A program made the position numbers and the translations under genes. Of a stretch of 64,000 bases of DNA, positions 5,641 through 47,453 are shown in pieces. Source of the stretch: an uncultured bacterium. Its GTDB lineage: Bacteria; Bdellovibrionota; JACOXK01; 2-02-FULL-40-11. The stretch's first letter is position 1, and each line of letters begins with the position of its first letter. The stretch covers positions 1,380 through 65,379 of the forward strand of contig CAYJMQ010000004.1 in NCBI GenBank assembly GCA_964371555.1. The letters run 5' to 3'. The notes beneath the pieces are model-generated. The model was not told the origin of the DNA. It searched no databases and saw nothing but the letters and a program-made list of their open reading frames with translations.

Positions 5641-7548
5641 ATGAAAAAAATTGAGCTGACCTTTCCTGATGGATCGCATCAGGCCTTCCCATCCGGTGTT
5701 GTTGGCTTGGAAGTAGTCAAAAAGTTTCCATCTCTTGCCGCGATCGCGCTAAAAATTGATGATGCCGCAATTATCGATCTCATGACCCCTATTGAGAAGG
5801 ATTGCCATGTCCGGATTTTAACGCCCAAAGATCGCGACGCTTTGGAAGTTCTCCGTCACTCCACAGCCCACATTATGAGTGAAGCGGTTCAACAGATTTT
5901 CCCGGACGCAAAGGTAACCATAGGCCCCGCGACCGAACAGGGATTTTATTACGACTACGACTTTGAGCCGGGCTTCACCCCTGAAGATTTAAATAAAATT
6001 GAGAAGAAAATGTCAGAAATTATTGAATCCAAAAGCCCTTTTCAAAGAACGACAATCGATAAAAAAGAGGCGCTTAAAAAATTTCGTCTGATGAATGAGA
6101 ATTATAAAGTTGAAATTTTAAATCAAATTCCGGAAGAAAAGGTGAGCATCTATAAACATGGAAAGTGGGAGGATCTCTGTCGGGGGCCGCATCTTCCTCA
6201 CACAGGATGGGTAAAGGCTTTTAAACTCCTATCGATTGCCGGGGCCTATTGGCGCGGCAATGTCAAAAACAAAATGCTTCAGAGAATTTATGGAACCGCT
6301 TTTTTTTCAGAAAAAGAGCTGGGGGATTTTTTGCATCAGCTTGAAGAGGGGAAAAAAAGGGATCACAGAAAGCTTGCAAAAGAGCTCGATCTTTTGAGTT
6401 TTCACCCCGAATCGCCGGCAAGTCCCTTTTTTCATCCGAAAGGGGAGATGATCTATAGCGAACTTATCAGTTACTGGAAAGAGACGCATCTGGCACGGCA
6501 TTATGAGTTTGTAAAAACCCCCTTTATTTTGAGCTCTGAGCTCTGGCATCGAAGCGGCCATTATGAAAATTATAAGGAAAACATGTATTTCGTAAACATT
6601 GATGAACAGGAATATTCAGTCAAACCGATGAATTGCCCGGGGCATATTCTGATTTTTCAATCGCATAAACATTCGTACCGTGAATTTCCAATTCGTCTTG
6701 CCGAGATAGGGCAGGTCCACCGGCATGAACTCTCCGGTGTGGCCCACGGTCTCATGCGTGTGAGAACCTTCTCGATTGATGACGCGCATATCTTTTGTCG
6801 GGAGGATCAGATTGAAGGGGAGATCTCTTCTGTCGTCGAGCTGATTCTTACCATGTATAAAACGTTTGGTTTTCATGAATATAAAATGGAGCTCTCCACA
6901 CGCCCTGAAAAATCGATTGGGGGGGATGAGATGTGGGCAGCCGCTATTTCGGCGCTTGAAAACGCCCTGAAGAAAACAAAATTAGAGTATCAGATCAACC
7001 CCGGTGAAGGGGCATTCTATGGACCTAAAATCGATTTTCATGTGAAAGATATTCTTGGAAGAATGTGGCAGTGCGGCACGATTCAGCTTGATTTTTCGAT
7101 GCCAGAACGTTTCGATTTGACTTATACGGGGAGCGATGGGAAAGAACATCGTCCGGTGATGATCCATCGCGCCGTTTATGGTTCTCTTGAGCGTTTTTTG
7201 GGGATTCTCATCGAGCATTATGGCGGGGCTTTCCCCGTTTGGCTCTCCCCGGTTCAAGCGATTGTTATGAACGTAACCGATCATCAGCTCTCCTATGCCC
7301 AAAAAATTTATGAGGACTTGGGAAAGGGGGGGGGAATCCGCGCCGATTCGGATTTTAGAAATGAAAAACTCGGGTTTAAAATCCGGGAAGCGCAGCTTAA
7401 AAAAATTCCCTACATGGTCATCATCGGAGATCGGGAGATGGAGTCTCAAACGCTTTCTCTCAGAGAGAGGGGTGGAAAGACATCCGGAGGGGTTCCTTTA
7501 GAGGAGTTTCTCAAACGCATTAAAAACGAAGTCGAACAAAGGAGGTAA
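5641..7548 (+). CDS. thrS: Threonyl-tRNA synthetase
   Basis: A 635-aa ORF with an N-terminal TGS domain, then the editing domain, a class II core (motifs MNCPGH and FRLAEIGQVHRHE) and a C-terminal anticodon-binding domain. Confidence 0.9.
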   Translation: MKKIELTFPDGSHQAFPSGVVGLEVVKKFPSLAAIALKIDDAAIIDLMTPIEKDCHVRILTPKDRDALEVLRHSTAHIMSEAVQQIFPDAKVTIGPATEQGFYYDYDFEPGFTPEDLNKIEKKMSEIIESKSPFQRTTIDKKEALKKFRLMNENYKVEILNQIPEEKVSIYKHGKWEDLCRGPHLPHTGWVKAFKLLSIAGAYWRGNVKNKMLQRIYGTAFFSEKELGDFLHQLEEGKKRDHRKLAKELDLLSFHPESPASPFFHPKGEMIYSELISYWKETHLARHYEFVKTPFILSSELWHRSGHYENYKENMYFVNIDEQEYSVKPMNCPGHILIFQSHKHSYREFPIRLAEIGQVHRHELSGVAHGLMRVRTFSIDDAHIFCREDQIEGEISSVVELILTMYKTFGFHEYKMELSTRPEKSIGGDEMWAAAISALENALKKTKLEYQINPGEGAFYGPKIDFHVKDILGRMWQCGTIQLDFSMPERFDLTYTGSDGKEHRPVMIHRAVYGSLERFLGILIEHYGGAFPVWLSPVQAIVMNVTDHQLSYAQKIYEDLGKGGGIRADSDFRNEKLGFKIREAQLKKIPYMVIIGDREMESQTLSLRERGGKTSGGVPLEEFLKRIKNEVEQRR

Positions 7549-7552
7549 TACT

Positions 7553-8101
7553 ATTAAAGCGCCGCGTCGAAATCGGGGGATCTATGCCCCCAAGATAAGG
7601 GTTATTGGAGAAAAAGGGGAACAAATGGGGATTATGCCAGTTCAGCAGGCTTTGGATCTTGCGTATCAAAGTGGGCTTGATCTGGTTGAAATTGCCCCTC
7701 AGGCAAATCCGCCAGTATGTAAGATCATCGATTATGGCAAGTATCTCTATGAGATTAAAAAACAACAGCAGAAAGCCAAAAAGAAACAGGTGGTTATTAA
7801 GCTTCATGAAATTAAATTCGGTGTGCGCACCAATGATCATGATTTAGAGCATAAGCTTCGAAAGATCTGGGAATTTTTGGATGAGGGGGATCGTGTGAAG
7901 ACAACGGTTGTCTTTCGTGGCCGGGAGATGGAGCATAGAGATCTGGGCAAAATAATGCTTGACAAAATAGTTGGAAAACTTGAAGGTATCGGCACAATTG
8001 AGCAGATACCCAAATTAGAAGGAAAGACGCTTTTCATGGTGTTTGCCCCGGTAAAAGCAGCAAAAAAAGAGAAAAAACCCGATGAAATTAAAAACCAATA
8101 G
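7553..8101 (+). CDS. infC: Translation initiation factor IF-3, initiating at a non-canonical ATT (AUU) codon
   Basis: The ORF-track ATG at 7625 lacks the conserved IF-3 N-terminus. An in-frame ATT at 7553 restores IKAPRRNRGIYAPKIRVIGEKGEQMGIMPVQQAL... A GGAGG lies 7 nt upstream of it and overlaps the thrS stop. The AUU start of infC is a conserved autoregulatory feature. Confidence 0.75.
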   Translation: MKAPRRNRGIYAPKIRVIGEKGEQMGIMPVQQALDLAYQSGLDLVEIAPQANPPVCKIIDYGKYLYEIKKQQQKAKKKQVVIKLHEIKFGVRTNDHDLEHKLRKIWEFLDEGDRVKTTVVFRGREMEHRDLGKIMLDKIVGKLEGIGTIEQIPKLEGKTLFMVFAPVKAAKKEKKPDEIKNQ

Positions 8102-8279
8102 CGGCGCTGCGAAAAGGATGCGGTTTACCAAGAAGGGAAAAATTAAGCGAAGCAGAGCCAGACGCAGGCACCTTTTAACCGTAGGGAAGACAGAAAGTCG
8201 CAAACGGCATTTGAGAAAAGCGGCTTATGTGGAATCTTCTGAAGCCCATCGGATGCGAAGGCTGATGCCGTATGGGTAG
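8082..8279 (+). CDS. rpmI: 50S ribosomal protein L35
   Basis: A 65-aa highly basic ORF, MKLKTNSGAAKRMRFTKKGKIKR. It overlaps the infC 3' end by 20 nt. Confidence 0.85.
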   Translation: MKLKTNSGAAKRMRFTKKGKIKRSRARRRHLLTVGKTESRKRHLRKAAYVESSEAHRMRRLMPYG

Positions 8280-8281
8280 TC

Positions 8282-8314
8282 GCGAAACCATTTTCGAAGA
8301 AAAAATGGTTTCGC
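8282..8314 (+). promoter_or_regulatory. Intercistronic stem-loop with perfect 13-bp arms between rpmI and rplT
   Basis: GCGAAACCATTTT-cgaagaa-AAAATGGTTTCGC. It lies directly after the rpmI stop and 25 nt before the rplT ATG. Confidence 0.5.
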
Positions 8315-8338: not shown

Positions 8339-9758
<1,420 letters not shown>

Positions 9759-9759
9759 A

Positions 9760-11820
9760 ATGATCTTAAGTTCCGAATGGCTTTCAGAGTATTTTGCCCT
9801 TCCTAAAAATCTCGATCTTGTTTTTGAAAAGCTTACAGGTATCGGCCTTGAGGTCGAAAATATCCAAAAAAGGAAGCTCGATACGAAATCTCCGCATGTT
9901 ACATTTGAAATCAACGCGCCCCCGAACCGGTCCGATGTTTCAAGTTTTATCGGTGTCGCGCGTGAGCTTTCCGTTGTCTTCAACAAAGATATTCGACTGC
10001 CAAAAGTTCTCATCCCCAAAACAACAAAAAATGACTCGAAAGAAAATATTCAGAAAGAAATCAAGGTCTCTCTTAAAGATTCAAAAAAATGCCCCCGTTA
10101 TATGGGTCGGTTTATCGCGGATGTTAAAATTGGCCCTTCACCGGAGTGGCTCAGGCGCCGATTGGAATCTGTTGGCCAGCGGTCGATTAATAATATCGTC
10201 GATATCACAAATTATGTGATGCTCGAGTACGGTCAGCCTCTGCATGCGTTTGATGCCAGCCGCATTGCGGATCGAATCATTATTATACGATCCGCGATTC
10301 AAAATGAAAAAATAATGACTCTCGATGGCGAAGAGAGAATTTTAACATCGGACGATCTTGTGATTGCAGACAGCTCAGGCCCCATTGCTCTTGCCGGCAT
10401 CATGGGAGGCGCCCGGTCGGAAGTCTCTCAAGACACGAAAAATATTTTTCTGGAAAGCGCCTATTTTGATCCGGTAGCCATTCGAAAAACATCAAAGCGC
10501 CTCGGTTTAAGCTCCGAATCATCGAAGCGGTTCGAGCGGAATGTGGATATAAACGGGGTTAAGACCGCTCTCGATCGCGCGGCAGCGCTCTATTCTTCAA
10601 TAGCTCAGGGCCGGGCGCTTCGGGATCGTATAGATATTTTCCCAAAAAAAATTGCCCCTAAAAAAGTAACCTTAACATTTGAGCGCCTGAAGCAATATCT
10701 GGGATATGAACCCAACCCTTCGAAAGTGAAGCAAACATTAAAACAGCTCGGATTTTTGCCGAAGGCTCCGCTCACCTATGAAATCCCGACTCATCGTGTC
10801 GATATTTCGCGGGATGTCGATCTGATTGAAGAGATCGCGCGATTTGAAGGATACGAAAAAATCCCCTCGATCGAACCGATCGGTTCCGCCGCTCTTCAAC
10901 AGAAAATTGAAAAAAATCGTCTGTTGGAGAGAAAAATAAAAGAAACCCTCTCGTTTCTTGGCTTTACAGAAGTTATAAACTATAGCTTCTGTTCCCAAAA
11001 AGATCTTGAAAAAATTGGTTGGCGTGGCGGGGTGGTTAAAATTCAAAATCCGATAGGGGAGGAGATGGCTGTTCTTCGTCCGACCCTCTCGGCTTCGCTT
11101 CTTAAAATCCTCAAACTAAATATCGATCGCCAGATCCGGAATGTTCGGATTTTTGAGTTGCGATCGGTGTTTGATGAAAAACAAAGGGAAACGAAAATGC
11201 TTGCCGGGCTTTTGAGCGGCCCCCGTTATCCGCTTCATTGGAAACTCAAAGAGGAGGGGATCGATTATTTTGATTTAAAAGGGGTGGTGAGTCATTTTTT
11301 TGGGGCCTTGCGCCACAGGGTAAGTTTTCGTGAAGCTGCGAGTGGTCCCTATTTTCATCCCAGACTTTCAACAAAAATTTGGATCAGTGGAAAATGCTAT
11401 GGCGAAATGGGGAGCATTCACATCCCAACCCTCGATATGTATGATCTCAAACAAGAGGCCTACTTATTTGAAATCAATGTATCAGAGCTTGAAAAGAGCG
11501 GTTTTAGAAAAATTGTTTTTGAACCCCTTTCAAAGTTTCCGGCAGTTCTTCGCGATTTATCGATTTTGGTTCCACTCAAACGCGCTGTTTTATTTGACGA
11601 GCTTTATGAAACAATTGAAAAAGAAGGGGGGGGGCTTGTGACCCGCGTAGAACTCTTTGATATTTACAAAGGGGACTCCATACCTCCCGGAACTGAGAGC
11701 TATACCTTTGCCTTGACATATCAATCGAGCGGCGGAACGCTGAGAGATGAAGAAGTGAATCGTCGACATGAGCATATTTGTCTCAAGCTTTCAGAAAAAT
11801 ATGAAGCCAAAATCAGGTAA
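9760..11820 (+). CDS. pheT: Phenylalanyl-tRNA synthetase beta subunit (short form lacking the N-terminal OB-fold B2 domain)
   Basis: It starts 2 nt after the pheS stop. B1-like MILSSEWLSEYF...GLEVE is followed directly by TFEINAPPNRSDV...GVARE. The B3/B4, B5 and C-terminal FDX-like domains are present. It is 686 aa against about 795 in E. coli. Confidence 0.8.
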   Translation: MILSSEWLSEYFALPKNLDLVFEKLTGIGLEVENIQKRKLDTKSPHVTFEINAPPNRSDVSSFIGVARELSVVFNKDIRLPKVLIPKTTKNDSKENIQKEIKVSLKDSKKCPRYMGRFIADVKIGPSPEWLRRRLESVGQRSINNIVDITNYVMLEYGQPLHAFDASRIADRIIIIRSAIQNEKIMTLDGEERILTSDDLVIADSSGPIALAGIMGGARSEVSQDTKNIFLESAYFDPVAIRKTSKRLGLSSESSKRFERNVDINGVKTALDRAAALYSSIAQGRALRDRIDIFPKKIAPKKVTLTFERLKQYLGYEPNPSKVKQTLKQLGFLPKAPLTYEIPTHRVDISRDVDLIEEIARFEGYEKIPSIEPIGSAALQQKIEKNRLLERKIKETLSFLGFTEVINYSFCSQKDLEKIGWRGGVVKIQNPIGEEMAVLRPTLSASLLKILKLNIDRQIRNVRIFELRSVFDEKQRETKMLAGLLSGPRYPLHWKLKEEGIDYFDLKGVVSHFFGALRHRVSFREAASGPYFHPRLSTKIWISGKCYGEMGSIHIPTLDMYDLKQEAYLFEINVSELEKSGFRKIVFEPLSKFPAVLRDLSILVPLKRAVLFDELYETIEKEGGGLVTRVELFDIYKGDSIPPGTESYTFALTYQSSGGTLRDEEVNRRHEHICLKLSEKYEAKIR

Positions 11821-11917
11821 TTGTTTTAACAACTTAGCACTCTTTCGGATTGACATAAATATTTGCGTTTGTTATTCTTTTTATGCCAATTTGTGGTGGA
11901 AAACATAAGGGGGCCAC

Positions 11918-12202
11918 ATGACAAAAGCTGAACTTATTGCGCAGGTTTATGAAAGGGTTGGTTTTTCAAAAAAGGATTCATCGGAATTGGTCGAGCTGAT
12001 TTTTGAGATGATGAAGGCGGCGCTCACCAACGCTGAAAAGATTAAAATTTCTGGTTTCGGGAATTTTATTGTCCGTCAAAAGAGGTCACGCATGGGGAGA
12101 AATCCTCAAACAGGGGAGTCGATAGAGATCTCGGCACGAAAAGTTTTGGTCTTTCACCCGAGCCAGGTATTAAAAGCACAGCTGAATCCTCATCGAAAGT
12201 GA
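11918..12202 (+). CDS. ihfA: Integration host factor alpha subunit
   Basis: MTKAELIAQVYERVGFSKKDS...GFGNFIVRQKRSRMGRNPQTGESIEI. It sits in the classic position after pheST. Confidence 0.85.
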   Translation: MTKAELIAQVYERVGFSKKDSSELVELIFEMMKAALTNAEKIKISGFGNFIVRQKRSRMGRNPQTGESIEISARKVLVFHPSQVLKAQLNPHRK

Positions 12203-12208
12203 TTTGGA

Positions 12209-12577
12209 ATGAAAAAAGAATTTGTAATTCCGCCGATTCCGGATCGGCTCTATTTTAAGATTAGCGAAGTCAGTCAGATCACAGGGGTTCCAGCCTATGT
12301 TTTGCGATATTGGGAAACAGAGTTTGAAATTTTAAAGCCCCCAAAATCAAAGGCAAACCAGCGGGTTTATGAGAGAAAGCATATCGAAAATATTTTTGTG
12401 GTAAAAAAGCTTCTCTGGCATGAGCGCTACAGCATTGAGGGGGCCAAACAGAAGCTTATTGAATTAAAACGAAAGGGGCGCGAAGAAGTACTCGATCCTT
12501 CCAAAGTAACCGAAGCGCAAAAAATGCGCCGGATCAAGAACGAACTCAAAGACCTCATTCAATTCCTTCGCGCATAG
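12209..12577 (+). CDS. MerR-family transcriptional regulator
   Basis: The HTH is YFKISEVSQITGVPAYVLRYWETEF. It is 122 aa. The same ihfA / MerR-like / tRNA-Pro arrangement occurs in pseudomonads. Confidence 0.7.
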   Translation: MKKEFVIPPIPDRLYFKISEVSQITGVPAYVLRYWETEFEILKPPKSKANQRVYERKHIENIFVVKKLLWHERYSIEGAKQKLIELKRKGREEVLDPSKVTEAQKMRRIKNELKDLIQFLRA

Positions 12578-37599: not shown

Positions 37600-37627
37600 T
37601 TTAAAATAGTTTTTTGTCTAAGAATTC

Positions 37628-38902
37628 TCATCGTCCGACCATTGCCAGAATATCTGCTCGAGCAAGATGATAATTCTTTCGTAGTTCCGAATATCTTTTC
37701 TTATATTCGATATATTTTTGCGTTGCGCTAAGAACATCTGGAGAGTTTTTAACACCTCTCTTATATTCGCCCAGTGTTCGATCGAAATAAAGTTTCCCTA
37801 ACTTCAAGTTTTTCTCCCCAATATGAACAAGCTCGTGAATGACTTTTAATTCTGATTTCATTGCCTCAAAACGAGCTTCTAATTCTTTTTGACGTTGAAG
37901 AGAAAGACTCTCAAATGCCATGGCTTGAAGACCTGCGGCAGCGCCTTCTGCTTTAGATTGAAAACCATCAAAAATATCAAGAGTTACTTTAATCCCGCCA
38001 ACAGTTTCATATCGAGCATTCCGTGTGGCTGCTTCTCGTTCTCTCTGCGTATACAAAAAATACCCCGCATAACCATCAATACTGGGAGTCCACCAACGAT
38101 AAAATTGTTTTTTTTGAAATTCAAAAGCTTCTTGATTTGCTTTTAATTGTAAAATTTCTCGATGAGAATTAATTAAATCCGCCTTTAAAGCCAAAAGGCC
38201 CTCATCGTGCTGATGTGGAGCGGCATCAATAGTTTCAAGATTTGTCTCTGGAGACAATCCCAATACAGCGTTTAACTCACGTTGAAAATTAGAAGACATC
38301 AATTCAGCCTGTCTCAAGTCTTGTTCAAGTTGAATTTTATTGATTTCAAACTCAATTCTGTCTGTAAGGGTTGCTAAGCCTGCTTGAATACGTTTTTCAG
38401 AAGCTCCTTTATTTTTTTCATTAAGATCTAGCGCTTCTTTAAAAATGTTTTGTGTCTCTTTTTGGAAAACTAAATTCCAATAAATTCCTCTTGCCTTCGT
38501 TAATTCCTCAAAATATATTTTTTGCTGTTCCTGCTGAGAAGCATTCAACTGTTTTTCTCGGACAGATCCTTCTAATGAATCCCGCCCCCCTTTAAAAAGA
38601 TTTATTTTTGTCTCAATTCCTCCAAAGGGTTGTTGCCTGGTGTCGCCAAATTCCCCGGATTTGAATGATTCCCCTCCAACTGAAACACCTAACGTAGGAA
38701 GATAAGACCGCAAAAGATACCCTGTGCGAGCTTCTCCCGATTGAACTGAAAAAGTGGCTCCCTGAACACTTTTATTTTTTTCTTTTACAAGGCTTGGTAA
38801 ATCTTCAAAGTTAATTTTAAGAGCGGTGGTTCCCGTTCCTCTTGAAGGAACCACCGCAATTGTTAAAATAATAATTTTAATAAATGATTTTTTATTCAAC
38901 AT
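37628..38902 (-). CDS. Outer-membrane efflux factor (TolC/CzcC family)
   Basis: It has a signal peptide. It is 424 aa with a duplicated helical/beta architecture. It is the last gene of the RND operon. Confidence 0.65.
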   Translation of the reverse strand: MLNKKSFIKIIILTIAVVPSRGTGTTALKINFEDLPSLVKEKNKSVQGATFSVQSGEARTGYLLRSYLPTLGVSVGGESFKSGEFGDTRQQPFGGIETKINLFKGGRDSLEGSVREKQLNASQQEQQKIYFEELTKARGIYWNLVFQKETQNIFKEALDLNEKNKGASEKRIQAGLATLTDRIEFEINKIQLEQDLRQAELMSSNFQRELNAVLGLSPETNLETIDAAPHQHDEGLLALKADLINSHREILQLKANQEAFEFQKKQFYRWWTPSIDGYAGYFLYTQREREAATRNARYETVGGIKVTLDIFDGFQSKAEGAAAGLQAMAFESLSLQRQKELEARFEAMKSELKVIHELVHIGEKNLKLGKLYFDRTLGEYKRGVKNSPDVLSATQKYIEYKKRYSELRKNYHLARADILAMVGR

Positions 38903-38906
38903 ATTT

Positions 38907-39323
38907 TTAATTTTGAGGAGGCTCTACCTGAAAAGTAACTGTCTCCTTTTTGCCTTTATAATCTACGATAAGTTCTAAGAGATATCTATGGGTACCTTTG
39001 ATTTGAGGTTTTGCTTCAAAGTGATCGTTGACAATATCTAATTTAATCGTTTGTTTTTTCTTTTTTGGTATCTGCACGGCTGCCACAATAGAAATATCTT
39101 TAAGAGATATAGGAGAGAGTTTATGGGTTAAAGGGTAGAGCTTTATCCCGGATGAATCATTCACAAGCTCGATATAAAGCAGGGTTACCCCTTTCACTGT
39201 TCCTCCATGAGGAGCTTGAATGGCGCCAGGGAGAACATCGTGTCCTTCATGTGCTTGAACAAAATCCCAGGACGTTATTAATCCCAGGATGAAAAAAGTT
39301 AAAATAAGATATCGATATTTCAT
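38907..39323 (-). CDS. Small periplasmic His-containing protein (candidate metal-binding accessory protein)
   Basis: A 138-aa ORF with a signal peptide. The mature protein begins HEGHDVLPGAIQAPHGG. It is wedged between the RND pump and the OMF. It overlaps the pump stop by 4 nt. It resembles neither an MFP nor CusF by eye. Confidence 0.4.
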   Translation of the reverse strand: MKYRYLILTFFILGLITSWDFVQAHEGHDVLPGAIQAPHGGTVKGVTLLYIELVNDSSGIKLYPLTHKLSPISLKDISIVAAVQIPKKKKQTIKLDIVNDHFEAKPQIKGTHRYLLELIVDYKGKKETVTFQVEPPQN

Positions 39324-42300
39324 GTGTCATGACCTCCTTCGATAACAGGTTTTTGATAAGTTGCAGCTCTTTCAGCCGATTTTCTTCCAAAATGGAAGAA
39401 GACTGTTGGGGTTACAATCATATCCAAAAGAGTGGAGCTAAAAAGTCCCCCCACAATAACAACAGCAACCGGGTGCAAAATTTCTTTACCAGCTTGTCCT
39501 TTAGCCAGAACAAAAGGAATAAGCGCTAACATGGCTGTCAATGCTGTCATTAAGACAGGGACAAGTCGTTCAAGAGAACCTCGAATGACCATCTGTCTAG
39601 AAAAATTTTCACCTTCATGTTTCATGAGATGAAGATAATGAGAAATCATCATAATGCCATTTCGGCTGGCAATGCCGCAAAGCGTAATAAAGGCTACCAA
39701 TGTTGCTACGGACAAAATGCGAGAAGAAAGAAAAATAGCAATAAGGCTCCCAATTAAAGCCATGGGAATATTAAGCATAATTTGGATGGCAATAAAGCTG
39801 GATTTGAAATGTCCATACAAAACCAGAAATATACCTAAGAGAGAAAGGATGCCCAAAAAAGTAATGAGTTTTGAAGCTTTTTGCTGACTTTCAAATTGAC
39901 CTCCAAAATTAATAAAATAACCATCAGGTAATTTTATATTTTTGCTGATTTTAGATTTTATATCTTGAATTAAACTATCTAAGTCTCGACCGGATGCGTT
40001 GGCTTGAACCACGATTCTTCTTTGAACGTTTTCTCGATTGATAATATTTGGGCCTGTCGATTCATATACATCAGCTACCTCTTCCAAAGTTACCCGTGTA
40101 CCATCGGGCATAATTTTTATAAGTGTTTTTTTCATAAGTTCAATGTTAGAACGGGAACTGTCATCAAATCTCATAAATACATTAAAAAATCTTTGGTTCT
40201 CCAAAGTATAGGCTACAATTTCACCATGTAATGCCATCTCAAGCATCGATGCAAGACTACCCAGAACAATGCCATATTTGGCTGCTTCTTCTCTTAATAA
40301 CTGAATTTTTACTTGAGGGATGAGCACCTGTTGCTCTATTTGCAGGTCAACCAATCCCCGGGTACCTTCAATGGCCTTGTGAATTTCAGCTGCCTTGTTT
40401 CTTAATGTCGTTAGATCTGTTCCGAAAATCTTAATCGCAATTTGAGCACGAACCCCTGACAGCAAATGATCTAATCTGTGGGATATTGGCTGGCCAATAT
40501 TTACATAAATGCCAGAAATGGTGGTTAATTTTTCTCGAATGTCATTTAAAACAGCTTCTCGAGATCGATGAGATTTGGCCTTAAAATCGACATCGATTTC
40601 AGAATAATGGACACCTTCAGCATGTTCATCCATTTCTGCGCGTCCTGTTCTCCTGGCAACTGATTTCACCTCAGAAACACTTAAAATAAGTTGTTCAGCC
40701 TGGGTACCAATTTTATTACTTTCTTCAAGAGAAATACCCGGATTTGCTAAGACAGTAATGGTAGCTGTGCCTTCGTTGAATTTAGGCAAAAATTCTTTTC
40801 CCATAAATAAAATTAATGTCAATGAGGCAAGAAAGAGTATGCCTAACCCACCCATCACAATTTTGGGATGGTCTAGCCCCCAATTGAGAAATTTTTCATC
40901 CCAATATTTTAAAAAGCGCACAAACCATCCTTCATCTCGCTCCATGAGTTTGCCTTTGGTTAAAAGATAGGAACAAAGAGCAGGGGTTAGGGTTAAAGAT
41001 ACGATGAGAGAAGCTACTAAAGAAACACTATAAGCAATTCCTAATGGAATAAAAAGCCTTCCTTCTATTCCACTTAAATAAAAGAGAGGAAGAAAAACAA
41101 GAACAACAATAATGGTCGCAAAAACAATAGAGTTTCTTACTTCGGAAGAAGCATTATAAATAACTTCTAAAACGGGCAAAGGTTTTCCCAGTTTTTTATT
41201 TTCTCTAAGCCTGCGAAAAATATTTTCTACATCCACAATAGCATCATCTACCAATTCACCGATCGCAACAGCTAATCCGCCTAATGTCATCGTGTTTACC
41301 GTAATGCCAAAAAGTTTCATCACAATGGCAGTTATGACAAAAGAGAGAGGAATGGCTGTGAGGGTAATCATTGTTGTCCGAAAATTAAGTAAGAAAATAA
41401 AAAGTACGATGATGACAAGAATAGCGCCATCCCGCAGTGCTTCTTCGACATTATGAATGGCAGCTTCAATAAAGTGGGATTGCTTAAATAAGTCCTTTTC
41501 TAATTTAACATCGCTTGAAAATCCTTTTGCAATTTCATCGAGCGCTTTATCAATACGCTTTGTGAGCTCTACCGTATTTGCTCCAGGTTGTTTTTGAATA
41601 CTCAATATAACAGCCGGTTTGGCATTGACACTTCCATCTCCTCTTTTAATTTGAGCGCCAATTTTAACTTGAGCGACATCTTGAACAAGTTTTGGAACAC
41701 CAAAATGCAGCCCCACCACTGAATTAAGAATATCTTCTTCTGAACGAACCATTCCAATATTTCTTATTAGAAATTCTTTCTTCTCCTGATCAATAAATCC
41801 ACCGGTTGTATTTTGACTTAAATGGGTCAGCGAGTGTTCAATGTCTTCCAGGGTTAATTGAAAATTTTGAATTTTTTCCGCAGAAAGTAAAATTTGATAT
41901 TGCCGCACACCTCCTCCGATAGCAATCACTTGTGCAACACCGGGAATACTTAGAAGCCTTGGACGAATCACCCAATCTGCCAATGTTCTAAGTTCGAGAG
42001 GAGAAATTTCTCCTTTTTCAGAAATTAAACCAAGAAGCTGTATTTCCCCCATAATGGAAGCAATGGGCCCCATTACCGGGATTGCATTCTTTGGTAATTT
42101 TTCTTTTGCAAGTTGAAGTTTTTCAGATACAAGTTGTCTATTTCTATAAATATCCGTTCCCCAGTCAAACTCGACATAAACAACAGAAAGACCAATCCCG
42201 GAAGAAGAACGCACACGTTGAACACCTGGCAATCCATTTAAAACCGTTTCAAGTTGAAGAGTAACCAAAGTCTCTACTTCTTCAGGAGCCATCCCTGGCG

Positions 42301-42457
42301 CTTCAGTTAAAATAGTTACTGTGGGGCGATTTAAATCAGGGAATACATCTACAGGCAGATGCATCAGTACATAGGTGCCGTAAACCAGCAAAAAAGCTGC
42401 GCTAGAGACAACAAAAAGTCGATTGGTCAAAGAAAAACGAATAATTTTATTAAGCAT
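39320..42457 (-). CDS. Heavy-metal efflux RND transporter (CusA/CzcA family)
   Basis: A 1045-aa ORF with 12 TM helices and two large periplasmic loops. The N-terminus MLNKIIRFSLTNRLFVVSSAAFLLVYGTYVLMHLPVDVFPDLNRPTV aligns with CusA/CzcA. Confidence 0.8.
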   Translation of the reverse strand: MLNKIIRFSLTNRLFVVSSAAFLLVYGTYVLMHLPVDVFPDLNRPTVTILTEAPGMAPEEVETLVTLQLETVLNGLPGVQRVRSSSGIGLSVVYVEFDWGTDIYRNRQLVSEKLQLAKEKLPKNAIPVMGPIASIMGEIQLLGLISEKGEISPLELRTLADWVIRPRLLSIPGVAQVIAIGGGVRQYQILLSAEKIQNFQLTLEDIEHSLTHLSQNTTGGFIDQEKKEFLIRNIGMVRSEEDILNSVVGLHFGVPKLVQDVAQVKIGAQIKRGDGSVNAKPAVILSIQKQPGANTVELTKRIDKALDEIAKGFSSDVKLEKDLFKQSHFIEAAIHNVEEALRDGAILVIIVLFIFLLNFRTTMITLTAIPLSFVITAIVMKLFGITVNTMTLGGLAVAIGELVDDAIVDVENIFRRLRENKKLGKPLPVLEVIYNASSEVRNSIVFATIIVVLVFLPLFYLSGIEGRLFIPLGIAYSVSLVASLIVSLTLTPALCSYLLTKGKLMERDEGWFVRFLKYWDEKFLNWGLDHPKIVMGGLGILFLASLTLILFMGKEFLPKFNEGTATITVLANPGISLEESNKIGTQAEQLILSVSEVKSVARRTGRAEMDEHAEGVHYSEIDVDFKAKSHRSREAVLNDIREKLTTISGIYVNIGQPISHRLDHLLSGVRAQIAIKIFGTDLTTLRNKAAEIHKAIEGTRGLVDLQIEQQVLIPQVKIQLLREEAAKYGIVLGSLASMLEMALHGEIVAYTLENQRFFNVFMRFDDSSRSNIELMKKTLIKIMPDGTRVTLEEVADVYESTGPNIINRENVQRRIVVQANASGRDLDSLIQDIKSKISKNIKLPDGYFINFGGQFESQQKASKLITFLGILSLLGIFLVLYGHFKSSFIAIQIMLNIPMALIGSLIAIFLSSRILSVATLVAFITLCGIASRNGIMMISHYLHLMKHEGENFSRQMVIRGSLERLVPVLMTALTAMLALIPFVLAKGQAGKEILHPVAVVIVGGLFSSTLLDMIVTPTVFFHFGRKSAERAATYQKPVIEGGHDT

Positions 42458-42477
42458 TTTCTTGTATTTTAAATCTC

Positions 42478-42870
42478 TTATTCGAGACGGCTCGAAACCA
42501 ACCGTATAAGCTCGTCAATTTTTTCTTCGATTTTAACCTTATTATTTTCTTTCATGGTCATTCGTACACAACTTCGAATATGTTGTTTTAAAATGGCCAT
42601 TTCAATAAACTTAAGTCCCGCTGCGACGGCTTTAAATTGAATTAGGATATCGACACAATATCTCCGTTCTAAAATCATGTTTTCGATACCGCTCATCTGC
42701 CCTTTGACTTTGCTCAAGCGTGAAAGAAGTGATGTGTAATCAGGATGGTTTTTAGATGGGTCAGTGGGCACAGTTGCATCCTGGCAATGTTTACACTTTT
42801 TATGCGAATCACCTCCTAAAATTACATTTTCCATATATAGAATTCTCCTTTCTCTCTTTCTTATTGACAT
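42478..42870 (-). CDS. CsoR/RcnR/FrmR-family metal-sensing transcriptional repressor with an N-terminal Cys/His-rich extension
   Basis: The core is KVKGQMSGIENMILERRYCVDILIQFKAVAAGLKFIEMAILKQHIRSCV, which is the DUF156 signature with the conserved Cys and His ligands. The extension is HKKCKHCQD. The likely start is MENV at 42834. Confidence 0.75.
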   Translation of the reverse strand: MSIRKRERRILYMENVILGGDSHKKCKHCQDATVPTDPSKNHPDYTSLLSRLSKVKGQMSGIENMILERRYCVDILIQFKAVAAGLKFIEMAILKQHIRSCVRMTMKENNKVKIEEKIDELIRLVSSRLE

Positions 42871-42896
42871 ATACCCTATGGGGGGTATATGTCAAT
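42865..42896. promoter_or_regulatory. Palindromic operator embedded in divergent sigma70-like promoters
   Basis: TTGACATATACCC-TATGGG-GGGTATATGTCAA. The 13-bp arms are perfect. The ATACCC...GGGGTAT core resembles the B. subtilis CsoR operator. TTGACA -35 boxes lie on both strands, each about 16-17 nt from a TATATG -10-like hexamer. Confidence 0.55.
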
Positions 42897-43055
42897 AAAA
42901 CAATAAGAAATGAAGAGAGAGATCATGAAAAAATCAAAGGGGATTATATTTTACGTATTTGCCACACTCCCTCAGAGTTTTATGCTATGGAAACAGGTCA
43001 GGTGTTATGTTATGGCCCTGACGGTGGAATTTGACTTTTTGGAAGGGGGATATTT

Positions 43056-43733
43056 ATGATACGACATATTTTTTTAGGAACCTGGATCATAGGTTCATTG
43101 CTTATACTAGGGTGCCAAGATGAAGATCAATCGTTTAAAGAGTTACAAAAAAAGACTGGAAAATTTGGTATGGAAGGCGAGTTTGAAGCAGAAAATGAAA
43201 GGGCCATTAAAATGGAAGAGGATCTTTCCAGAAGACATCATTTTTATCAGTCCTTAAAAGGAACGTATGAAGGAACTCTTCAAGAAGAAGGCGGAAGTTT
43301 TAATTTAAGAATTACTTTTGCTCCTAGTCTTCCACCATATCCGAAAGATCCTAGTCGCATTAGAACTATTGAGGAAATAACATCAGATCTTACAAATTTG
43401 TATTTTAATGTACAAGTCATTCAATGGAGTCCTCAAAATCCTCTAACTTCTGTAGGATGTCGGGTAGAAGGGGTCAGACCAGATATGATTACAGGAGAAG
43501 TTTTTATCTCTTCAGAAATTTGTCCCAATTTTTATGCTCTTCTTTTATCTGATGCCACCTCTCAAGATAGCATAGGAACATTAAACAATAATCAAGAGAA
43601 AGAACTTGCAACAAGCCTTGCTCAAGCCATTATTGAAGGTCAACTCACAACGGTTTCTCAAATTCAAGGTCAAGTACGTCCTACGACAAATGCTGCTATT
43701 TATGAGTTTATCGCAAAAAGGGTTGAGATGTGA
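43056..43733 (+). CDS. Hypothetical lipoprotein
   Basis: The lipobox is LLILGCQ. It is 225 aa. It is the first gene of the divergent operon. I recognise no family. Confidence 0.45.
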   Translation: MIRHIFLGTWIIGSLLILGCQDEDQSFKELQKKTGKFGMEGEFEAENERAIKMEEDLSRRHHFYQSLKGTYEGTLQEEGGSFNLRITFAPSLPPYPKDPSRIRTIEEITSDLTNLYFNVQVIQWSPQNPLTSVGCRVEGVRPDMITGEVFISSEICPNFYALLLSDATSQDSIGTLNNNQEKELATSLAQAIIEGQLTTVSQIQGQVRPTTNAAIYEFIAKRVEM

Positions 43734-45004
43734 AGAATATCCTTAATGCTTTTTTTATTTTCTTCTTTTCTTTATTTTCTTTGGAATCTTTGGCTTCATC
43801 TGACTCTTTAACTATCTCTCTTGAAGAGATTACTCAAAAAATAAGTACAGAAAATTATCTGGTTTTAGAAAATGCCCAGCGTGTTTATCAGGCAAAAGAA
43901 GCCATCGAAGTTTCGAGAGGAAATCTTCTTCCTCATCTTAACTTTTGGAAAGTAGCTGCAATCACTTTTGAACCGATGGCAGCTATTGGCATGGTTGAAG
44001 ATATAGCTCCCTTTTTGGTACCTGCAAATTGGTTTAGAGTTAAAGAACAAGAGATACTTTATTTGGCTACTCAAGAATCTTATCGAGCTCTCTGGGCCAA
44101 TGAATTGATGACTGGTCGAAATCTCTATTTTAAAATTTTGTTTGATGAAATTCTTTTGGAAAAAATTCAGGAAAATAAAAATCTAATTAATCAAATTTTG
44201 AATATTTCAAAAATGCGAGAGAAATTAGGCGGACAAAGGCAAACTATTTCTCAAGATATTGAGGTAAGAGTTTTAGCCCTCCAGGAAGATATTCGATCTT
44301 TAGAAGTTTTAATCAATGAGGAACTTAATTCTCTTTCTTATTTGATGGGACATGCAAGTGAGGTGGAAATTAAACCACAACCCATTGATCTTCCCGAATT
44401 TGAAAATTTTGAACCGTTGAATTACACAGATTTTGAATTTAGAGTGCTAGATACAGCTCCTGAATTGAGACAGATGGAATATTTAGTGAAGGTAGCTGAC
44501 TTGGTTAAAAAAGAAGAAGAGTTTTCATTTTTAGGGGGATCGAATTTAAGTCGAGGCGTTGCAGGAGGAGTTTTTGATGGACTTCCAATGGGTGTAGGAG
44601 GGCTTGGATTTGGGCTTGCCCCTGCAATTCGTGTGGCTAAGGCGCAAAAAGAAATTTTAAAAATTCAAAAAAGAGGAATCGAAGAGGTTCTTAAAAGGCA
44701 ACTTAAAAATTTAGTCAATAATTATAATTTAGACTTAGAAAATCATGTGAATTTAAAAAGACGCTCAGAGCTTACAAAAAATATTTTAGACAACCTCTTT
44801 AGAAGATTAACCTTGGGAGAAGAAATAGAAGTTTTAGATCTTGTGGAAGCTTCAAGAAATTATATTCAAGCATCCAGTTCCTTTTTTGCCATCAATTATC
44901 GTTTTTTAGCCAATGAAGATAAGCTTTCACGTCTTATTTTTCATGGAGACTATGATAAAAAGCCAGCCGGTTTAGAAGAAGTAGAAAAGAGAAGCAAAGA
45001 ATAA
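43730..45004 (+). CDS. Outer-membrane efflux protein-like (TolC-family) protein
   Basis: It has a signal peptide. It is 424 aa. The N-terminal LTISLEEITQKISTENYLVLENAQRV is the OMF helix signature, and the repeat halves are duplicated. It overlaps the upstream stop by 4 nt. Confidence 0.5.
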   Translation: MKNILNAFFIFFFSLFSLESLASSDSLTISLEEITQKISTENYLVLENAQRVYQAKEAIEVSRGNLLPHLNFWKVAAITFEPMAAIGMVEDIAPFLVPANWFRVKEQEILYLATQESYRALWANELMTGRNLYFKILFDEILLEKIQENKNLINQILNISKMREKLGGQRQTISQDIEVRVLALQEDIRSLEVLINEELNSLSYLMGHASEVEIKPQPIDLPEFENFEPLNYTDFEFRVLDTAPELRQMEYLVKVADLVKKEEEFSFLGGSNLSRGVAGGVFDGLPMGVGGLGFGLAPAIRVAKAQKEILKIQKRGIEEVLKRQLKNLVNNYNLDLENHVNLKRRSELTKNILDNLFRRLTLGEEIEVLDLVEASRNYIQASSSFFAINYRFLANEDKLSRLIFHGDYDKKPAGLEEVEKRSKE

Positions 45005-45472
45005 ATGAAAAAAATTTTAAAACTCAGTTTTTTATTTTTAATTTTTACAGGATGTAACGAAGAGGAGGAAATTCAAAAATGGATTGATAAGGTAGATAAT
45101 CTCCGATCAAAAGTAGAACAAGAATTACCTATTACTCCCTATCAAGATTCTCAACATCAGGCTTTTAAAGAATACTTTTCCGAACTTAATCAAATGATAT
45201 TAAAATTAGGGGATGATGAAGAACTCATAAAGCCATTTAATGGGGTTGTTTCAAAAAGTGATTTGGTCGTTTTATGTCCGAAAATCTTTTTGTCTAAAGA
45301 AAATTGGATGCTTCTCATGGGAAGATGTCAAAAAAATCGTTTCTTTTTATGTGCTGAAGAAGTTCGTTCTTATCCTACCATCGTCTCTCGGCTCAGAGAA
45401 CACTTAGGTACGGAACAACAAAAAAGATTTGACGAAGTATCAGCATGTCGGGAAATATCAGAAGTTCAATAG
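45005..45472 (+). CDS. Hypothetical lipoprotein
   Basis: The lipobox is LIFTGCN. It is 155 aa. It starts 1 nt after the upstream stop. Confidence 0.45.
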   Translation: MKKILKLSFLFLIFTGCNEEEEIQKWIDKVDNLRSKVEQELPITPYQDSQHQAFKEYFSELNQMILKLGDDEELIKPFNGVVSKSDLVVLCPKIFLSKENWMLLMGRCQKNRFFLCAEEVRSYPTIVSRLREHLGTEQQKRFDEVSACREISEVQ

Positions 45473-45494
45473 ATGTGAAATATCACATGTTACA

Positions 45495-45857
45495 TTACAT
45501 TTTAATAGTGGCTCCTTTTACACCTTCCAACGTAGAAGCCTCTACCTCGATTGATCCACCAAATGTCCAACGTTTAAAAAGTATACACCATCGCCCTTGA
45601 AAATCAGTCAGTGTTGTATAATAAGATTCATCATGTTTTACAGTTACCAATAGCGGCTTTTTACCTTCCGGATGAGTAGCTGTTCCACAAGCTTCTAGAG
45701 CACCATTCCCCCTAATGTTCGTGAGAGAGGTTATTTTTAAATCTATCTCTTTTGCAAAAGCCCCTTTTATATTTATAAGGCCTAAAACAATTGCAACACA
45801 AAATCCAATATTTATTACCATTTTCTTCATTTTCATCCTCCATTGGGTAATATGCAA
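45495..45857 (-). CDS. Hypothetical small secreted protein
   Basis: It has a signal peptide (MKKMVINIGFCVAIVLGLINIKGAFA). It is about 110 aa mature and has 2 Cys. I recognise no family. Confidence 0.4.
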   Translation of the reverse strand: MHITQWRMKMKKMVINIGFCVAIVLGLINIKGAFAKEIDLKITSLTNIRGNGALEACGTATHPEGKKPLLVTVKHDESYYTTLTDFQGRWCILFKRWTFGGSIEVEASTLEGVKGATIKM

Positions 45858-45978
45858 AATTTCCGCGATTAAGTCCAGTCAACTTCCATGTAGTTTTTTG
45901 CGATGAGTGATTTTTAAATGACACAACTCCTATTTTTTGCTTGTCATGAGAACAGCGCTTTTCTATACTCCGCTTGAG

Positions 45979-46494
45979 ATGGATTCAATACGGGAGAAAA
46001 TCCGGGATATTCCTGACTTTCCCAAAAAGGGGGTTATTTTTAAAGATATTACCCCTCTTCTGAATGACGCGAAGATATTCAAAAAAGTAATCAGCATCTT
46101 TCTTGAATGCTACCAAAATGAAAAAATTGATAAGGTGGTGGCGATTGAATCGCGTGGATTTATTTTTGGTTCGGTTTTGGCCTATGAGCTCAACGCGGGT
46201 CTTTGCGTGGTTCGAAAAATGGGAAAACTCCCATATAAGACAATCAAGAAATCGTACGACTTGGAATATGGAACAGACCACCTTGAAATTCACGAAGACT
46301 CCATTAAAGCGGGGGAACGGGTCTTGATTGTCGATGATCTTCTGGCAACCGGCGGAACTGCGGAGGCGGTCATTCATCTCGTAAAAGAGCTTGGCGGAAC
46401 GGTTGCGGGTCTTGCCTTCCTGATTGAGCTGCGGTTTCTCAAAGGGAGAGAGAAACTCAAAGGCTACGATATCTATACGATGATTCAGTATTAA
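45979..46494 (+). CDS. apt: Adenine phosphoribosyltransferase
   Basis: DFPKKGVIFKDITPLL ... VVAIESRGFIFG ... VLIVDDLLATGGTAEA is the PRPP-binding motif. The ORF-track start at 45937 is also possible. Confidence 0.85.
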   Translation: MDSIREKIRDIPDFPKKGVIFKDITPLLNDAKIFKKVISIFLECYQNEKIDKVVAIESRGFIFGSVLAYELNAGLCVVRKMGKLPYKTIKKSYDLEYGTDHLEIHEDSIKAGERVLIVDDLLATGGTAEAVIHLVKELGGTVAGLAFLIELRFLKGREKLKGYDIYTMIQY

Positions 46495-47453
46495 TCGTCA
46501 AAAGGGATATCAAGAGGTTCCATCAAAGGGGACGGCGCCAGATCCTTTATTTGAAAACATTCAAAAACAGGGAGTGAGCAGTCAGCATAGGGAGCCACAC
46601 GAAAATCTGCTACCTTGAAACATGCATAAGTGTAGGCCTCTTCGAGAGAAACAATTCCGCTGCCATCAAAGTCTGCTTCTGGAATCAGCGGACCTTCTGG
46701 ATAGCTCCCATTTAAAGCGGAAAAAAAATGATAGGTGAAAACCCCAAAATCGTAGGCTTCGCACTTCTGTGCCTCAGTATCAGTATAACGTTCCCCGTTC
46801 TTAAAAGGAGCCCAATAGCTTTTTTTGCTCTCATCAGCCGAAGCAAAAAAAAGATACTCGCGGCCATTATTGTCCAAGATTTCTCTACCAAAAACTTCTA
46901 TAAAAGAACCGCTATAACAAGCCTCTATAAAAAGGGTGATCTCCTGCGACCCGTGAAAGTTTTTCTTAAGCCACTCTTTCAATTCGACGCTTTCAATATC
47001 TTTATTTTCCCCGATGATTGATTCCAGACAAAGCCTGCTCTTTAACCCATGCATGGTAAAGTAGAGAAAAATTTGCGCGTTATGGTTTTTAACTTTTTCT
47101 CCAAGCTCTTTAAAGGCATCAGCGACATTGTTAAATGTCGTCCCCCATTTCACATCCCATCTTCCATCCCCGTCTAAATCAGGGAGCGTGTTTTTCAAGC
47201 CGCCATCTTTCCAGGCCAAAGAAACCAAGGGGCTTACCACAATGATATTTTCTTTTGGCACCCCCCTTTTTATCAGAGTCAAATAAACAAGTTTCAAATT
47301 GTTGGTTGTCCAGGGCTCTTTTGATCCTTGAACCAGAATCGCATACGTCTGATCCCCCCCCTCCAAAGTTCTCTCATCTTCGGGATTTGGCCAACAGAGA
47401 GAAGGAAAAAAAATGGGAAAAAGCATCAAAAATAAGAGTCCTCTCATAAACAA
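46491..47453 (-). CDS. Secreted caspase-like cysteine peptidase, C13 (legumain/GPI-transamidase)-like
   Basis: It has a signal peptide. The His-Gly dyad is in FTMHGLKSRL and the catalytic Cys is in IEACYSGSF, matching the C13 H-G ... A-C-x-S-G arrangement. It is 320 aa. Confidence 0.5.
   Translation of the reverse strand: MFMRGLLFLMLFPIFFPSLCWPNPEDERTLEGGDQTYAILVQGSKEPWTTNNLKLVYLTLIKRGVPKENIIVVSPLVSLAWKDGGLKNTLPDLDGDGRWDVKWGTTFNNVADAFKELGEKVKNHNAQIFLYFTMHGLKSRLCLESIIGENKDIESVELKEWLKKNFHGSQEITLFIEACYSGSFIEVFGREILDNNGREYLFFASADESKKSYWAPFKNGERYTDTEAQKCEAYDFGVFTYHFFSALNGSYPEGPLIPEADFDGSGIVSLEEAYTYACFKVADFRVAPYADCSLPVFECFQIKDLAPSPLMEPLDIPFDD

Follow-up and report, generated by a model that had tools for sequence, protein, structure and literature searches.

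The window analysed here is a stretch of 64,000 nucleotides (nt) of DNA from an uncultured member of the Bdellovibrionota (contig CAYJMQ010000004.1), and our subject is a set of three genes on its plus strand, hereafter the triad, which encode a lipoprotein of 225 amino acids (lipo225), a TolC-like protein of 424 amino acids and a second lipoprotein of 155 amino acids (lipo155). Judged by its sequence and its neighbours, the triad appears to be an uncharacterised outer-membrane cassette, controlled by the copper sensor CsoR, of the Bdellovibrionota islands for heavy-metal efflux by pumps of the resistance-nodulation-division (RND) family. We consider it probable, with some reservation, that its products assemble into an auxiliary exit duct, stabilised by the lipoproteins and induced along with the pump. 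The literature searched contains no description of the triad, and neither lipoprotein has a Pfam or NCBIfam family or a significant match in the PDB, in agreement with an initial annotation of this DNA, which had concluded that the operon matches no described system.

A translationally coupled unit of three genes

The three genes of the triad are the following.

43056..43733, plus strand: lipo225, an open reading frame (ORF) for a 225-amino-acid lipoprotein, with the Shine-Dalgarno sequence GGAAGGGGG
43730..45004, plus strand: TolC-like gene, 424 amino acids, with a GTG start and a signal peptide; a divergent, non-lipidated paralogue of the outer-membrane factors (OMFs)
45005..45472, plus strand: lipo155, a 155-amino-acid all-helical lipoprotein

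The triad is one translationally coupled unit with a fixed gene order. As read from the sequence, the Shine-Dalgarno sequence in front of lipo225 is strong, the TGA stop codon of lipo225 (43731-43733) shares a 4-nt overlap, GTGA, with the GTG start codon of the TolC-like gene (43730), and the TAA stop codon of the latter (45002-45004) directly abuts the ATG of lipo155 at 45005. The initial annotation had described three coupled ORFs at these positions, two of them with a lipobox and the middle one with OMF-like features. The coordinates and both junctions were exact, the lipoboxes were found at Cys20 of the 225-amino-acid protein and Cys17 of the 155-amino-acid protein, and the OMF relationship was borne out by the profile searches described below.

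Related loci were gathered through the family proteins, a one-genome-per-species scan and a metagenome scan, and were annotated with profiles built in this analysis. About 25 loci contain the triad with its gene order and coupling unchanged, and the 4-nt overlaps or abutting stops and starts have been kept across them. Such a recurrence of the three families goes far beyond chance. The record titles of these loci that name an organism refer to the Bdellovibrionota, to the older label “Deltaproteobacteria” or to a plain “bacterium.”

A putative copper switch between two divergent operons

Upstream of the triad lies a repressor gene on the opposite strand, and the two are separated by a palindromic control region.

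42865..42896, no strand assigned: CsoR box and bidirectional promoter-operator, between csoR and the triad
42478..42870, minus strand: csoR, a Cu(I)-type repressor of the CsoR/RcnR family (PF02583 at 8.6e-22)

The arms of the palindrome, TTGACATATACCC and GGGTATATGTCAA, match perfectly over 13 nt and are 6 nt apart, and by our own estimate about 0.01 such repeats would be expected by chance in 64 kb. Written out, the palindrome reads TTGACA-TAT-ATACCC-TAT-GGGGGGTAT-ATG-TCAA, with a box core of ATATACCC-TAT-GGGGGGTATAT and two inward-facing TTGACA hexamers alongside, such that the arms double as two opposed -35 hexamers and elements of the TATATG type, within the box, could serve as -10 elements. 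The box matches the experimentally defined CsoR box TATACCCCTACCGGGTATA, which has been validated by footprinting and overlaps the bidirectional promoter of the csoR-cueA divergon in Bradyrhizobium (PMC5057107). The same combination of box and TTGACA hexamers immediately precedes the triad in two further, independent loci, one of which has a divergent csoR gene (L032), while in the other csoR is the first gene of the operon (L026). A relaxed regular expression for the CsoR box gave 4 matches in comparison to 4.4 expected in shuffled sequences and was thus not enriched; the argument for the box rests on the extended architecture and on its position, not on the number of matches. Against Rfam, the operon and its 5' region gave only sub-threshold chance matches to the palindrome.

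The CsoR protein in the window carries the residues C72, H97 and C101, as read from the sequence. The spacing C-x25-H-x4-C is the rule for the Cu(I) ligands of CsoR proteins. With the PF02583 domain, the C-H-C triad and a pseudo-palindromic operator with a GC core, the protein has the features of a Cu(I)-sensing CsoR and is predicted to act as one. The longest ORF for csoR has its ATG within the operator palindrome. Translation more likely begins at Met13 (42834), which would give a protein of 118 amino acids and is preceded by AGGAG at a distance of 10 nt; with this start, the box falls in the promoter and not in the coding region. A plus-strand ORF of 92 amino acids that spans the intergenic region (42756-43034) is probably spurious.

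Recurrence of the triad beside heavy-metal pumps

A CusA/CzcA-type RND operon is located within 10 kb of the triad in 22 of the 23 non-redundant loci for which the flanking sequence was long enough, and in 10 loci the triad directly follows the RND gene on the same strand. We distinguish three classes of loci. In class A, the order is OMF, a His-rich protein of 145-230 amino acids, RND and triad, all on one strand. In class B, it is RND, a His-bearing protein of 138-170 amino acids, OMF and triad, likewise all on one strand. In class C, an operon of OMF, a full membrane fusion protein (MFP) and RND is accompanied by a triad that is either divergent or adjacent (L001, L008, L010, L013, L032). 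Four loci (L016, L021, L022, L024), the closest relatives of the window, have the order RND, small protein corresponding to the 138-amino-acid protein of the window, OMF, lipo225, TolC-like and lipo155, with RND proteins that are 63-70% identical to that of the window. Because of this identity to the class-B pumps, and because the minus-strand operon of the window has the order csoR, RND, 138-amino-acid protein and OMF, the window is best read as a six-gene cluster of class B that has been divided around csoR into a pair of divergent operons.

The co-regulation predicted for the triad and the metal-efflux operon is well supported by this comparative evidence. The initial annotation had proposed that both operons share the palindromic control region, which we now identify as a putative CsoR box set in back-to-back TTGACA promoters, and it had asked whether such triads recur next to CsoR and RND loci in related genomes. 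They do, with an RND operon in 22 of 23 loci and the CsoR box in three independent loci. Its statement that the triad lacks an inner-membrane partner applies to the plus-strand operon, which contains no ATP-binding cassette (ABC), RND or major facilitator superfamily (MFS) transporter, but not to the neighbourhood, given the RND operon beside almost every triad. A mirror-tree comparison of RND and triad identities gave a moderate correlation (r about 0.5) and no evidence of tight co-evolution.

Other relatives have copper-linked genes next to the triad, including genes for P-type ATPases, YHS-domain proteins, NosL-like proteins and YtkA, and the constant theme of the triad neighbourhoods thus appears to be copper. 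Several individual loci deserve mention. Four loci of class C (L001 at 8777-9199, L010, L013 and L017) encode a protein of 135-149 amino acids with HNH-associated repeats (PF18780) beside the triad, which in L001 and L010 is placed between the triad and the pump operon and may be a DNA-binding regulator that replaces CsoR. In L018 (9971-12751), lipo225 follows the RND gene, and the TolC-like gene and lipo155 are replaced by a 205-amino-acid ORF and others near csoR; by eye, this ORF resembles a membrane protein of the cation-diffusion-facilitator type, and the cassette is a partial or decayed one. The RND gene in L025 (2498-5617) is split into two ORFs of 645 and 392 amino acids in a single metagenome scaffold, possibly by a frameshift or as a pseudogene, and is intact in the near-identical L024. 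Finally, an ornithine-cyclodeaminase-family gene follows the triad in the class-B loci L022-L025 (9745-11684), in L022 and L023 with an EamA-type exporter gene next and then a P-type ATPase gene, which might hint at a link to small molecules of a metallophore-like kind.

The middle protein is a remote homolog of outer-membrane factors

Several profile comparisons indicate that the TolC-like protein is a distant yet full-length homolog of the OMFs. The Pfam domain OEP (PF02321) was matched in two stretches at 25.6 bits, just above the gathering score of 22, and was also matched by 22 of 35 relatives of the protein, at best with 5e-8. In comparison to TIGR01844, residues 100-261 align in register. 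In a global profile-profile alignment with hhalign, positions 1-421 were collinear over 379 columns with positions 4-424 of 16 canonical OMFs from related loci, with a probability of 86% and an E-value of 6e-7; this alignment was used in place of an earlier one with three OMF sequences, which had given a weak result (E-value 0.008). Furthermore, a jackhmmer search seeded with the canonical OMF of the window picks up the TolC-like family. The N-terminus, MKNILNAFFIFFFSLFSLESLA/SS, reads as a cleavable Sec signal peptide that contains no Cys. The protein thus shows two features of the OMF/TolC family (PF02321; TC 1.B.17 in the Transporter Classification): homology to the OEP repeats in both halves of a protein of about 420-490 amino acids, and a Sec signal peptide that would direct it to the envelope. 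The profile searches suggested by the initial annotation led to the OMF family. From this relationship, we infer a trimeric TolC-like channel architecture. The protein has more than 400 homologues, and the organism names on the matches listed are Bdellovibrionota or carry the older “Deltaproteobacteria” label.

Two new lipoprotein families and a gene fusion

The lipobox of lipo225 ends in LLILG-C20, and the lipid-bearing Cys is invariant in 25 of 25 homologues. AlphaFold2 (AF2) models the protein with a mean predicted local distance difference test (pLDDT) score of 88 as a 45-residue N-terminal helix (residues 23-67) followed by an 8-stranded beta-barrel. The barrel carries two invariant Cys residues (C135 and C156), the conserved charged residues cluster on the helical stalk, and relatives extend the helix with coiled-coil repeats rich in Ala, Glu and Lys, so that the coiled coil is of variable length. 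The family is narrow, with 289 clusters at 50% identity among 1.84 billion representatives. It has no usable match in Pfam or NCBIfam, and a Foldseek search against the PDB, in a copy current to April 2026, gave weak calycin-like matches with E-values of 0.009 at best and TM-scores of 0.2-0.4, the best of which were to AttH, FABP, lipocalins, nitrobindin and GID4, all at 0.009 or worse. We therefore regard lipo225 as a new family and name its fold no further than a calycin-like barrel. Forms with two barrels in tandem, and in one case three (561 amino acids), were also observed (P0155-P0158, P0169, P0226, P0229, P0267; L017 at 463-1725 and L021 at 7091-8305).

The second lipoprotein, lipo155, has a lipobox ending in LIFTG-C17, with the lipid-bearing Cys in 10 of 11 homologues, and four conserved Cys residues (C91, C108, C116 and C148). 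Its AF2 model (pLDDT 87) is an all-helical bundle, for which Foldseek returned nothing below an E-value of 0.17 in the PDB, and it has no usable match in Pfam or NCBIfam. It is likewise a new family, whose fold we name no further than a helical bundle. For the two lipoproteins and the small proteins of 138 and 145 amino acids, Pfam and NCBIfam mostly gave no match whatsoever, and the remaining matches were at chance level, well short of the curated cut-offs. The structure predictions, which the initial annotation had recommended for all three proteins, cover the two lipoproteins, and both models are confident and without a significant match in the PDB.

In one locus, lipo155 is fused to the TolC-like protein. 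The fusion protein (P0106, 583-586 amino acids; L013 at 10689-12449) consists of TolC-like residues 39-448, followed in frame by a lipo155 domain at 455-583. The fused copy has neither a signal peptide of its own nor a lipobox, and we take it for this reason to be a true gene fusion and not a frameshift of the usual 4-nt overlap. Since one lineage has fused the two proteins, lipo155 and the TolC-like protein very probably bind each other. The C-terminus of known OMFs is periplasmic, and the fusion argues that the binding site of lipo155 would be the equatorial region of the TolC-like protein, which is periplasmic and C-terminal. The lipo155 copy in L003 also lacks the lipid-bearing Cys, which together with the missing lipobox in the fusion argues that the lipid anchor is not the sole function of lipo155. 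The conserved coupling of the genes and the tandem forms of lipo225 fit a stoichiometric complex.

Both lipoprotein families conserve Cys residues in even numbers, in pairs that have the look of disulfides, and in the alignments of homologues neither family has a conserved metal-binding motif of the His or Met type or a CxxC motif. A role as metallochaperones was considered as the leading function of the lipoproteins and was rejected on these grounds, and the suggestion in the initial annotation that the module sequesters metal finds no support in proteins that conserve Cys pairs only. We also considered that lipo225 and lipo155 could be disguised adaptors of the MFP/HlyD type, a family with lipoyl, alpha-hairpin, beta-barrel and membrane-proximal domains. 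This was rejected, since neither had a Pfam or NCBIfam match to MFPs and no adaptor was present among the 50 Foldseek matches listed for each, and the occurrence of the triad beside pumps with full MFPs weakens the idea further.

The neighbouring pump operon and the low-GC island

The minus-strand operon next to the triad encodes a pump of the heavy-metal efflux (HME) branch of the RND family, and both operons are part of one island.

39320..42457, minus strand: CusA/CzcA-family HME-RND inner-membrane pump (TIGR00914 at 814 bits, cut-off 701)
38907..39323, minus strand: secreted His-bearing protein of 138 amino acids (AHEGHD...), without a Pfam match, at the place where the gene for the adaptor (MFP) would be expected
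37628..38902, minus strand: canonical, non-lipidated OMF of the RND operon (PF02321 OEP at 1.6e-29)
37600..45900, no strand assigned: low-GC island, with a GC content of 0.31-0.40 in comparison to 0.44-0.50 in the flanks

The RND gene begins about 600 bp from the triad on the other strand. CusA structures are its best match in the PDB (3.4e-143), and it belongs by this match and by its profile score to the CusA/CzcA subfamily of RND permeases. At the positions of the three methionines Met573, Met623 and Met672 of CusA, it has T, Y and H, according to an alignment counted by hand, and the three-methionine Cu(I)/Ag(I) site of CusA is thus absent. The pump may therefore not handle its substrate as CusA does, despite its putative control by CsoR. 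The fourth transmembrane helix of the pump reads AIGELVDDAIVDVEN.

A comparison of all ORFs of at least 70 amino acids with an MFP profile built from related loci identified no MFP-like gene in the 64-kb window, which thus lacks the CusB/CzcB adaptor of a CusCFBA-type tripartite pump. The 138-amino-acid protein is kept in the class-B loci; the idea that it is the remnant of an MFP was rejected, since hhalign gave an E-value of 0.5 in comparison to MFPs.

The whole block of eight ORFs forms a single low-GC island, which contains exactly the two divergent operons and one orphan ORF. Its flanks are housekeeping genes, with an mnmA-like gene and a class-V aminotransferase gene on one side and apt on the other. 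Neither a tRNA gene nor an integrase gene was seen at the island edges; related loci lie near AbiE, TraG or recombinase genes. The orphan ORF (45495-45857, minus strand) encodes a secreted protein of 120 amino acids, is convergent with the triad, and has neither a Pfam match nor a counterpart in the related loci. Just outside the island, a secreted protein of 320 amino acids with a peptidase C13 (legumain-like) domain is encoded on the minus strand (46491-47453).

Possible functions of the triad

The explanation that we favor, and hold to be the probable one, is that the triad provides an accessory exit duct. Cu(I) would release CsoR, upon which the pump operon, with the RND pump, the 138-amino-acid protein and the canonical OMF, and the triad would be made together. 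The TolC-like protein would form a trimeric channel, with lipo155 on its periplasmic lateral or equatorial surface, where the C-termini of OMFs lie, while the lipid-anchored lipo225 would place its coiled-coil stalk along the channel and offer its barrel domain as a second dedicated partner. Metal that the neighbouring pump expels could leave the cell through this complex, as a further route or as an alternative one. Both lipoproteins would then be structural partners, in principle like YbjP on the TolC of E. coli, and not metal chaperones, because they lack conserved His or Met residues and have even numbers of Cys, charged residues clustered on the stalk and tandem forms of lipo225. We find it rather doubtful that the Bdellovibrionota have a new kind of metal-efflux assembly, in which an HME-RND pump without a conventional adaptor is joined to or complemented by a second TolC-like channel with two dedicated lipoproteins of new folds, be it as a pump architecture that does without an adaptor or as a TolC-like complex that is induced by copper and has no inner-membrane transporter of its own.

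Several observations weigh against the accessory exit duct. Each pump operon has its own canonical OMF, and a second duct is not obviously needed. Some 155 nt separate the start of the triad from the operator upstream, and another promoter-like site (42959-42986) could give expression independent of CsoR. The first putative barrel hairpin of the TolC-like protein is unusually hydrophobic, contains Pro and is highly conserved, a pattern that is atypical of a lipid-exposed OMF barrel. The protein gave no match to any PDB chain, even at an E-value of 10, either as a single sequence or as a profile of 35 sequences; this result is uninformative because the canonical OMF of the window also finds no sequence match among the solved structures. 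The roles assigned to both lipoproteins, and the binding of lipo225 to any partner, are predictions. Furthermore, the TolC-like proteins in the related loci are 47-54% identical to that in the window, whether the adjacent RND protein is 70%, 33% or 29% identical. In L026 and L027 (7633-10426), finally, csoR is followed in one operon by lipo225, the TolC-like gene and lipo155; the surrounding -8/+10 kb are free of RND, ABC and MFS genes and include a divergent operon for a 128-amino-acid protein, a DUF2231 protein, a NosL-like protein and YtkA. The triad can therefore be encoded on its own, and the steady identity of the triad and the csoR-only arrangement in L026 together argue against a specific fit to one pump.

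These last observations also speak for a pump-independent copper module, in which the TolC-like protein and the lipoproteins act at the outer membrane or in the periplasm without docking to the RND pump. Such a module might release or keep out copper, free or bound to a ligand, or might shield the biogenesis of the outer membrane and of lipoproteins under copper stress, and its adjacency to pumps would reflect only a common regulon and island. The triad is equally well conserved beside three very different pump classes, each pump has an OMF of its own, and the barrel of lipo225 is weakly similar to the ligand-binding barrels of the calycin type. Even so, we consider this explanation unlikely. 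The triad is adjacent to a pump in 22 of 23 loci and is on the strand of the pump in 14, directly after the RND gene or its OMF gene; no metal-binding motif is conserved; and the genome that contains L026 may encode a pump elsewhere. Known OMFs, moreover, open only when they are engaged by an energised inner-membrane complex, which also weighs against a channel that acts by itself. The transporter-less module of the initial annotation thus gives way to a triad that mostly forms the 3' end of an RND operon, and survives in a weaker form in L026 and L027.

It has also to be asked whether the triad substitutes for the missing adaptor, such that the lipoproteins or the TolC-like protein, or both, bridge the RND pump to the outer-membrane channel in a tripartite pump without an MFP. 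The absence of an MFP-like gene from the window would be accounted for in this manner, as would the class-B loci, which carry only the His-bearing protein of 138-170 amino acids, unrelated to MFPs, in its place. The small protein of class A aligns weakly with the N-terminal strand and the C-terminal membrane-proximal domain of MFPs (E-values 0.002 and 0.038), lipo225 has a lipid anchor, a coiled coil that varies in length, and a barrel, and there are two OMF paralogues per cluster. However, the class-C pumps, which have a complete MFP, are accompanied by this triad too, with its size unchanged and an identity of about 50%; lipo225 shows the lack of MFP and adaptor matches described above; and the assignment of the class-A protein as a remnant is weak and without a Pfam match, so that the 145-amino-acid protein as a remnant of the membrane-proximal MFP domain is a weak lead only. 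An adaptor substitute thus seems quite improbable to us. We are still more sceptical of an envelope function unrelated to efflux, such as the export of surface lipoproteins, with the OMF-like protein translocating or scaffolding both lipoproteins and a copper link that is due to hitch-hiking on the island. A gene for an outer-membrane protein flanked by two lipoprotein genes is in idea like the Slam-type systems, whose genes lie beside those of their lipoprotein cargo; lipo225 has an 8-stranded barrel, and the surroundings of the loci are often mobile, with AbiE, TraG or recombinase genes. Against this, the fusion puts lipo155 at the periplasmic C-terminus of the OMF, three independent loci have the CsoR box right at the promoter of the triad, nearly all triads are linked to pumps, and the lipo155 copies in L003 and L013 have no lipid anchor. 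This last explanation can hardly be correct.

Comparison with known systems

The accessory exit duct that we propose shares with CusCFBA and CzcCBA a CusA/CzcA-family pump (HME-RND, TC 2.A.6.1) and an OMF (TC 1.B.17) in one metal-regulated cluster. It differs from them in that the window contains no CusB/CzcB adaptor, has T, Y and H in place of the Met triad, and adds a second, divergent OMF paralogue and two novel lipoproteins, and in that the regulator is CsoR and not CusRS or CzcRS. With the lipidated OMFs CusC, OprM and CmeC, the triad has in common that an OMF is associated with a lipid anchor of the inner leaflet. There, the OMF itself carries the anchor, whereas the TolC-like protein lacks a lipobox and would depend on a lipid provided in trans, and in the fused form in L013 and the Cys-less form in L003 the anchor is absent altogether.

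With regard to the switch, the csoR-copZA regulon of B. subtilis is a comparable CsoR system. The csoR-cueA divergon of Bradyrhizobium liaoningense has, like the window, a CsoR box (TATACCC...GGGTATA) on a bidirectional promoter and a Cu(I)-responsive C-H-C repressor (PMC5057107). Whereas those two systems control a P-type ATPase or a chaperone, CsoR in the window would control the operon of an RND pump and a cassette for the outer membrane. In its lipid-anchored, small antiparallel beta-barrel in the envelope, lipo225 recalls the calycin-type lipoproteins Blc and NlpE (CutF), the latter with regard to its N-terminal domain. NlpE has been linked to copper tolerance, and the resemblance is a lead only, since there is no sequence match, lipo225 has a long coiled-coil stalk and no CXXC motif, and neither NlpE nor Blc was among the 50 Foldseek matches listed for lipo225.

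In the prevailing view, a tripartite efflux pump requires three parts and no more: a transporter, an adaptor and an OMF. The work on YbjP provided the first lipoprotein partner shown for a non-lipidated OMF (10.1101/2025.03.19.644130; PMC13095208). Our findings add a phylum-wide, operon-conserved cassette of an OMF paralogue and two dedicated lipoproteins, one of which is found fused to the OMF paralogue, with apparently direct control of the cassette by a copper sensor and with attachment to pumps that often have no recognisable adaptor. They also define two new families of envelope proteins, lipo225 and lipo155, and place both in a copper context. If the physical model is true, the known repertoire of OMF accessory proteins would be larger, and the triad would offer a tractable case for the anchoring, assembly or coupling of an OMF without a standard adaptor. 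The closest precedent is TolC-YbjP, in which a small lipoprotein is the partner of a non-lipidated OMF, an interaction that is so far predicted for the triad. YbjP binds TolC in a 3:3 complex, sits on the periplasmic lateral surface of the channel and is dispensable for basic efflux in E. coli (10.1101/2025.03.19.644130; PMC13095208). Neither lipoprotein of the triad has a Pfam match to suggest the DUF3828/Tai3-like fold, and neither YbjP nor Tai3 was among the 50 Foldseek matches listed for each. YbjP has a DUF3828 fold and is encoded apart from tolC, whereas the triad has two operon-coupled partners with unrelated folds, one of which has been fused to the OMF in one lineage.

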